Shown: piece by piece, positions 2,077-2,112 of the stretch
How positions within the stretch are numbered: the first letter of the stretch is position 1
Layout: each line of letters starts with the position of its first letter
Virus record (IMG/VR): IMGVR_UViG_2526164602_000016
DNA from: a virus
Taxonomy: Duplodnaviria; Heunggongvirae; Uroviricota; Caudoviricetes
Direction: 5' to 3' (one strand)
DNA: 7,924 bases
Translations under genes and position numbers: made by a program
The notes under the pieces: generated by a model
What the model was told of the DNA's origin: nothing
Seen by the model: the letters and a program-made list of their open reading frames with translations, nothing else
Database searches by the model: none

Positions 2077-2112
2077 AAACCCCGGTATCTGCTGATACCG
2101 GGGTTTCTCTTT
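2077..2112. terminator. Perfect 13-bp inverted repeat hairpin, putative bidirectional intrinsic terminator or protein-binding palindrome
   Basis: AAACCCCGGTATC (2077-2089), loop TGCT (2090-2093), GATACCGGGGTTT (2094-2106), with 13 of 13 complementary pairs. It is followed by CTCTTT on the + strand and preceded by GAAAGAAA, giving a U-rich tail in either orientation. Confidence 0.45.

Follow-up and report, generated by a model that had tools for sequence, protein, structure and literature searches.

Read-through of terminators by Q-modified RNA polymerase is the standard lambda paradigm. Classic bidirectional terminators are located between convergent genes, and small RNAs (sRNAs) that bind Hfq usually consist of a 5' hairpin, an A/U-rich linker, a terminator and a U-tail. 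Phage morons are cassettes of promoter, gene and terminator. PMC3594210 covers the moron concept in general. Tree et al. (2014; Table S2, PMC4104026) reported EcOnc22, EcOnc23 and EcOnc24 as Hfq-crosslinked peaks in the Sakai prophages Sp15, Sp14 and Sp11, on the strand opposite genes I and J. The same table lists EcOnc22-type RNA as a species of about 85 nt on northern blots that is destabilised without hfq. We found no paper on a terminator or hairpin between I and J of lambda, and this gap carries no annotation in lambda's own record or in RefSeq records.

We analysed a 7,924-nt stretch of DNA (the window), which is the tail end of a lambda-like prophage (Table 1). Genes I and J are both encoded on the plus strand, and a perfect palindrome lies in the gap between them. 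Two small ORFs that run across the palindrome (44 aa on the minus strand and 77 aa on the plus strand, with the hairpin inside them) were set aside as unsupported. At 2631-2632, gene J lacks 1 nt relative to the intact J of strain AVS0542, which splits it into ORFs of 147 aa and 1011 aa. Judged from this deletion, the tail-tip gene J of the window's prophage looks like a pseudogene.

Table 1. Features of the window and of its I-J gap
Feature	Coordinates	Strand	Details
K, C40 peptidase		+	first gene in window order
Gene I	1286-1867	+	
I-J gap	1868-2209		342 nt
sRNA gene, homolog of EcOnc22/23/24	~1873..1970	-	from alignment to Sakai Sp15, Sp14 and Sp11 I-J gaps
sRNA gene's own terminator	stem 1905..1899 with 1887..1881, then T7 run 1879..1873	-	
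Sigma-70 promoter-like site of sRNA gene	2004..1977	-	TTCACA, 16-nt spacer, TATAAT
176-bp conserved module with palindrome	2034..2209		J-proximal half of I-J gap; boundary with sRNA module from alignments
A-rich tract AAAGAAAA	2072..2079	both	left flank; can pair with downstream T-tract on + strand
Minus-strand U-tract UUUUCUUU	complement of 2072..2079	-	3' of hairpin; tail TTTTCTTTCATGCCC, nT 4.15
Left arm AAACCCCGGTATC	2077..2089		GC-rich core 2080-2089; repeat search, 13/13 complementary
Tetraloop TGCT	2090..2093		AGCA on minus strand
Right arm GATACCGGGGTTT	2094..2106		repeat search
Plus-strand U-tract TTTCTCTTT	2104..2112	+	tail score nT 3.43, d = 22.3
I-J terminator-like site	2080-2103	both	+ d = 22.3, nT 3.43; - d = 32.9, nT 4.15
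J ATG	2210..2212	+	ORF list and RefSeq gpJ annotations at identical loci
J-lom terminator-like hairpin, then T6	5705..5722	+	d = 42.1; lambda counterpart 18920-18935
lom	5753-6352	+	
lom-stf terminator-like hairpin, then T6	6380..6399	+	d = 42.8; lambda counterpart 19613-19632
stf	6411-7730	+	

Structure and terminator score of the palindrome

The arms of the palindrome were located through a repeat search of the window. They are 13 nt long, 100% complementary and 4 nt apart. In the window, no other perfect inverted repeat within 60 nt exceeds 9 nt. An earlier sequence-only reading had described this 13-bp repeat, its TGCT loop and its A-rich and T-rich flanks, and had called such perfection unusual for a chance sequence; each of these statements was borne out. 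By our own estimate, a perfect 13-bp stem with a loop of 3-8 nt should occur about 7e-4 times per window (6 x 7924 x 4^-13). The same reading placed the repeat directly upstream of J, which overstates its proximity, since 103 nt separate the end of the right arm at 2106 from the J start codon.

The stem consists of a 10-bp GC-rich core that extends to 13 bp when the A-U pairs are included, closed by a 4-nt loop. Folding energy had been proposed as a check, and the hairpin proved very stable: the RNA from 2065 to 2120 folds at -30.8 kcal/mol on the plus strand and -28.7 kcal/mol on the minus strand (z -7.0 and -6.6), and 0 of 200 shuffles fold as stably. The core contributes -19.1 kcal/mol (plus) and -18.5 kcal/mol (minus). 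The stem is followed by UUUCUCUUU on the plus strand and by UUUUCUUUC on the minus strand. A C interrupts the U-tract in both cases, so termination efficiency may be partial. Directly 3' of the palindrome, at 2113-2138, lies a second, weak hairpin (AGCATG, a 14-nt loop and CATGCT) that is followed by TTTTCGGG. Beyond it, about 70 nt without an assigned role lead to the J ATG.

We scored hairpins with our own d'Aubenton-Carafa-type score, d, which combines hairpin energy per nucleotide with a weighted T-tail. Sites with d > 0 numbered three on the plus strand of the 7.9-kb window (in the I-J, J-lom and lom-stf gaps) and one on the minus strand, which is the palindrome. The palindrome is the window's only hairpin with d > 0 on both strands, and its plus-strand d of 22 is the lowest of the three plus-strand sites. 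Across 40 random first-order Markov windows we found 0.225 sites with d > 0 per window and 0 with d >= 22; none of the 40 carried a hairpin with d >= 22 on both strands. As a control we scored whole lambda, where the score marked sites that we take to be t_oop, tI, t_imm (the cI-rex terminator), tR2 and tL3; no site was marked at the expected position of tR' (~44.7 kb). A separate consensus terminator scan of the window did not list the palindrome and also misses the lambda I-J hairpin. The scan appears to miss them through greedy stem extension into the A/T tracts, which uses up the T's of the tail.

The palindrome combines a GC-rich stem and short loop with a 3' U-tract and a location outside coding sequence, as intrinsic terminators do. 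It also carries the signature of a bidirectional terminator, with an A-tract upstream that mirrors the T-tract downstream and d > 0 on both strands. Like known bidirectional terminators, it is a symmetric GC-rich hairpin between an A-tract and a T-tract, with a stem and U-tail on either strand. It differs from the classic ones in its setting. No convergent units end at this hairpin: the flanking protein genes both lie on the plus strand, and the nearby minus-strand sRNA gene begins past it. No annotated minus-strand gene in the window ends at the hairpin, and a minus-strand client is therefore hypothetical.

When the whole window was searched against Rfam 15, the I-J gap gave no match at E <= 1. 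A 381-nt search of the gap gave solely sub-threshold matches, the best at 27 bits against a gathering score of 48. The sub-threshold matches over the hairpin, on both strands, were all to models of terminator-bearing sRNAs or leaders. We found no transcript-end data for this locus in the literature.

The I-J gap in the window, in lambda and in related prophages

The I-J gap is made up of two halves, an I-proximal sRNA gene (~1868-2033) and a J-proximal slot for variable cargo, which is occupied here by the 176-bp module. Many E. coli prophages and Stx phages share the I-proximal half, at 74-100% identity. The promoter-like site of the sRNA gene has 11 of 12 consensus matches, the best in the window, and is kept across gap types; in the minus-strand direction of transcription it lies 72 nt past the left arm of the hairpin. 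Sakai sRNA coordinates in PMC4104026 run about 140 nt below those of NC_002695.2, as we checked with AgvB1 (Sakai 1941922-1941982). With this offset applied, the EcOnc peaks map onto the EcOnc22-type sRNA in the Sp15, Sp14 and Sp11 gaps. Because the EcOnc22-24 peaks fall on the homologous sRNA, we identify what the sequence-only reading called a moron, on the basis of this homology, as an antisense sRNA cassette. The gene has no Rfam family and no known target. We considered AgvB and AsxR as the identity of this neighbourhood and rejected them, as their Rfam families have no match here and they are located downstream of pR' instead of in the I-J gap. The Pas sRNAs were also rejected, as their genes sit near Q and the lysis genes. 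EcOnc22/23/24 are homologous to the window's neighbouring gene in the I-proximal half and not to the palindrome. In the Sakai copies from Sp15, Sp14 and Sp11, unlike the window, another hairpin comes after the sRNA gene, and it has a score on the plus strand only.

We surveyed the gap more widely in E. coli genomes, IMG/VR and GTDB genomes and sorted the 187 I-J gaps obtained into 18 types by clustering; the GTDB scan, performed with protein I, contributed 13 loci. Fourteen of the 18 types, lambda included, have a plus-strand hairpin with d > 0 upstream of J, and their stems are unrelated in sequence. In the Sakai Sp15-type gap, the J-proximal half is ~70 bp long and holds the hairpin CAGGCACCC-TCCG-GGGTGCCTG. 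Enterobacter has GGTGC-TTCG-GCACC, Rahnella a CCCGCC/GGCGGG stem (written CCCGCC-CCG-GCGGG) and Pantoea GCCACC-TCCG-GGTGGC, each followed by T7. The four exceptions are the sodC type, a gap with minus-strand cargo, a hairpin with a mismatch and a gap with a miscalled J start. The window belongs to the positional class that we define here as a plus-strand hairpin and T-run located after the stop of I and before the start of J. A score on both strands is found in the window's gap type only, and the other types score on the plus strand alone. Activity on the minus strand may be a side effect of the A-tract.

Cargo in the I-J gap varies. A minus-strand sodC with its own terminator is present in Sakai Sp10 and other prophages, and CFSAN004176 also has sodC on the minus strand. 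Prophages of Enterobacter and Pseudocitrobacter have a plus-strand ORF there, and elsewhere the gap holds other cargo, 484-593 nt long. Where plus-strand cargo is present (two loci), it is located between I and the hairpin. Cargo-free gaps of 48-66 nt, as a rule, have a hairpin upstream of J as well. We also considered that the window's gap might hold the remnant of a sodC cassette and rejected this, as it shows no likeness by eye to the sodC terminator or promoter.

The lambda I-J gap contains AAACCGCC-TGCG-GGCGGTTT followed by TGTCATTT (NC_001416 15463-15490, with the hairpin at 15466-15489). As in the window, this hairpin lies between the tail assembly gene I and the tip gene J on the late-operon strand and is built from an A-tract, a GC-rich stem, a tetraloop and a T-rich tail. 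The three sites of the window recur in lambda, where the K-to-stf region scores in the I-J, J-lom and lom-stf gaps on the plus strand; no minus-strand site was found in that region. Over all of lambda, the late operon has plus-strand sites in the D-E, E-Fi, I-J, J-lom and lom-stf gaps. The lambda I-J hairpin differs from the palindrome in its shorter stem (core -9.6 vs -19.1 kcal/mol), its distance of 25 nt from the J start compared with 103-106 nt in the window, its score on the plus strand only and its unrelated sequence. One lambda site, which closes the cI-rex operon (35807-35824), does score on both strands, with d = 9.7 (plus) and 19.0 (minus) against 22.3 and 32.9 for the palindrome. 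The terminators that bound morons, such as those flanking lom and that of sodC in Sakai Sp10, resemble the palindrome in lying in a late-operon cargo slot, and the palindrome likewise adjoins an independently transcribed antisense cassette. They differ from it in that the adjacent sRNA cassette has its own promoter and terminator, with the palindrome outside the cassette on the promoter side.

The 176-bp module is widespread and nearly invariant. It matched 1,451 records from 1,446 of 5,426 complete E. coli genomes and was at least 99% identical in 1,442 of these records, and the adjoining sRNA module varies by ~9%. Many O157:H7 and ST131 genomes are among the carriers. A 49-nt palindrome query found 1,445 E. 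coli genomes, the same ones in which at least 80% of the module is present. The query matched a median of 2 places per carrier genome (maximum 8), compared with a median of 1 for the module (maximum 4); such an approximate doubling would be expected if a self-complementary site matches both strands. Recurrence elsewhere had been suggested as a sign of a repeat element or operator. The palindrome was found nowhere outside the module in the 1,445 carrier genomes and is therefore neither a dispersed repeat nor a multi-site operator. A dispersed palindromic repeat of the REP/BIME kind was therefore rejected, as all carriers have the single module context. All 112 IMG/VR matches and all 72 metagenome copies with the TGCT loop likewise fall within the I-J module.

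The 10-bp stem CCCCGGTATC/GATACCGGGG occurs with other loops in more than 35 unrelated metagenome contexts, many with terminator-like A/T-tract flanks. These copies include a recurrent family with loop AAAC that adjoins GACGCTGGAAAGGATGAAACCCGCA. They probably represent convergence and not a repeat family. No module homologs below 95% identity were found in E. coli genomes, and phage records gave near-identical copies alone. As the module is nearly invariant, the palindrome does not permit a covariation test. The Sp15-family hairpin has one CG-to-UA pair with a G-U intermediate, which is not significant (matched by 133 of 500 shuffles). Two departures from the common arrangement were explained. 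In one IMG/VR contig an IS3-family element is inserted ~20 nt left of the hairpin and accounts for the sole differing left flank, and in strain NZRM4165 a deletion runs from the middle of gene I into the right arm, via CCGG(T/G)GG microhomology.

Roles considered for the palindrome

We conclude that the palindrome is likely a strong Rho-independent terminator hairpin in the I-J gap, built to work both ways. It is best read as an unusually strong, symmetric local form of a hairpin retained in the I-J gap by lambda-like late operons. The sequence-only reading had proposed a bidirectional terminator. In keeping with that proposal, every structural part of an intrinsic terminator is present in either orientation, at a position typical of lambda-like late operons. 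What carries the positional argument is that the hairpin at this place has been replaced repeatedly, each time by a different one of like form. In a repressed prophage, rightward-moving RNA polymerase lacking Q would pass gene I and the antisense sRNA gene, be released at ~2109-2112 and not enter J-lom-stf. Polymerase moving leftward out of J would be released at ~2071-2074, about 65 nt before the EcOnc22-like sRNA promoter, which would leave that promoter unoccluded. During lytic growth, Q-modified polymerase would be expected to read through the palindrome, as it must at other late-operon hairpins.

The proposal that the hairpin insulates the moron from late transcription has the geometry wrong. 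Late transcription on the plus strand comes from gene I and meets the sRNA gene first and the hairpin second, and on that strand the hairpin could therefore shield J and not the moron. The sRNA promoter can be shielded by the hairpin solely on the minus strand, against transcripts arriving from the J side.

The palindrome could instead be the terminator of a separate small RNA encoded in the 176-bp module, which we regard as rather unlikely. Such an RNA might be a ~75-nt minus-strand transcript (~2142 to ~2070), its gene forming a tandem pair with that of the EcOnc22 homolog; alternatively, the 3' end of the gene I transcript might give rise to a plus-strand RNA (~2029-2112). On the minus strand, the only promoter-like site upstream of the hairpin is TTGCCA-18-TATCCT at 2178..2149, but its 9 of 12 matches are at chance level, as the window has 6 such sites against 4.2 expected. 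The minus-strand RNA from 2143 to 2066 would have a 5' hairpin, an A/U-rich linker, a terminator and a U-tail, and folds at -32.2 kcal/mol (z -6.3); this z-score is owed mostly to the palindrome itself. Sub-threshold matches to Rfam sRNA models span 2029-2144 on both strands, yet every one is far under its gathering score. Prophage moron sites carry many sRNA genes, some of them convergent (PMC4104026), and we counted this in favour of a separate sRNA. Against it, the literature yields no report of RNA here, and the module has no variation that could reveal a conserved seed. The Hfq peaks of Tree et al. in the Sp15, Sp14 and Sp11 gaps belong to the EcOnc22-type sRNA, as mapped above. The I-J gaps of Sp15, Sp14, Sp11 and Sp10 all lack the 176-bp module, and for this reason those Hfq data are silent on it. 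We consider it unlikely, in the same vein, that the module is not only a terminator and encodes a second Hfq-type sRNA ending at the palindrome, whether a minus-strand RNA of ~75 nt or a plus-strand one.

The hairpin might also act after transcription, as a barrier to 3' exonucleases or a processing site that stabilises upstream late mRNA, or as a shield for the J leader; the T-run would then be incidental. The conserved position of the hairpin upstream of J in very different phages fits this idea, as do the hairpins of lambda, Enterobacter, Rahnella and Pantoea, which lie 7-25 nt from the J start, by the ribosome-binding site. In addition, a Q-antiterminated operon should largely override terminators when these genes are needed. 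We nevertheless think a post-transcriptional role improbable, because the T-run is kept in 14 of 18 gap types and a hairpin serving stability alone needs none. At 103 nt from the J start, the window's hairpin is too far away to act on the ribosome-binding site. Matching hairpin and T-run sites also flank lom in the same operon; a passage of PMC7067206 gives lom as expressed in lambda lysogens, and termination is the expected role at these flanking sites.

It is more doubtful still that the palindrome is a relic, the leftover terminator of a cargo gene since deleted from the I-J slot, with no present function. The gap is a cargo slot in which sodC, with its own minus-strand terminator, occupies an equivalent place elsewhere, as does other cargo, and no role has been assigned to the 97 nt that separate the hairpin from J. 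However, the stem is perfect, shows no decay and is unchanged in more than 1,400 genomes. Even the cargo-free gaps, as a rule, have a hairpin here, and the 97-nt segment is unlike the sodC promoter region (compared by eye, unaligned).

Least credible to us, and very improbable, is a role as a DNA site, either an operator for a dimeric protein, which the sequence-only reading had offered as its alternative, or a recombination or insertion hotspot bounding the cargo slot. Perfect dyad symmetry is what such a site would have, and both the IS3-family insertion and the deletion ending in the right arm lie at or near the palindrome. Nonetheless, each module has a single copy, the carrier genomes contain no other, and no promoter-like site overlaps it, the nearest -35 box being 72 nt off. 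The 4-nt spacing of the arms, the GC-rich core and the A/T-tract flanks have the layout of a terminator. The positional analogues in other phages differ wholly in sequence and keep the form of a hairpin plus T-run, which points to a role of the RNA structure and not of the DNA sequence. Microhomology accounts for the deletion, and the module boundary lies at ~2034 and not at the palindrome.

Meaning for lambda-like prophages

As a textbook-type intrinsic terminator in a Q-antitermination late operon, the palindrome would matter little in itself. A strong two-way hairpin could serve as a compact natural insulator part. If true, a second sRNA would account for the contrast between the module, conserved at >=99% identity in one quarter of complete E. 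coli genomes, and the more variable sRNA module beside it.

The I-J gap emerges as an organised cargo slot with the order I, antisense Hfq-bound sRNA gene, variable cargo, terminator-like hairpin and J. Knowing this order helps with the annotation of the gap, which has been left blank in thousands of E. coli prophages. The J-upstream hairpin and T-run are kept across distant lambda-like phages despite complete turnover of the stem sequence, and they are unannotated even in lambda. An unlikely but wider reading is that this hairpin, kept from E. coli to Pantoea phages, has a dedicated and so far undescribed role in tail-tip gene expression. The hairpin offers a cheap, testable case of terminators partitioning the silent late operon of a prophage.
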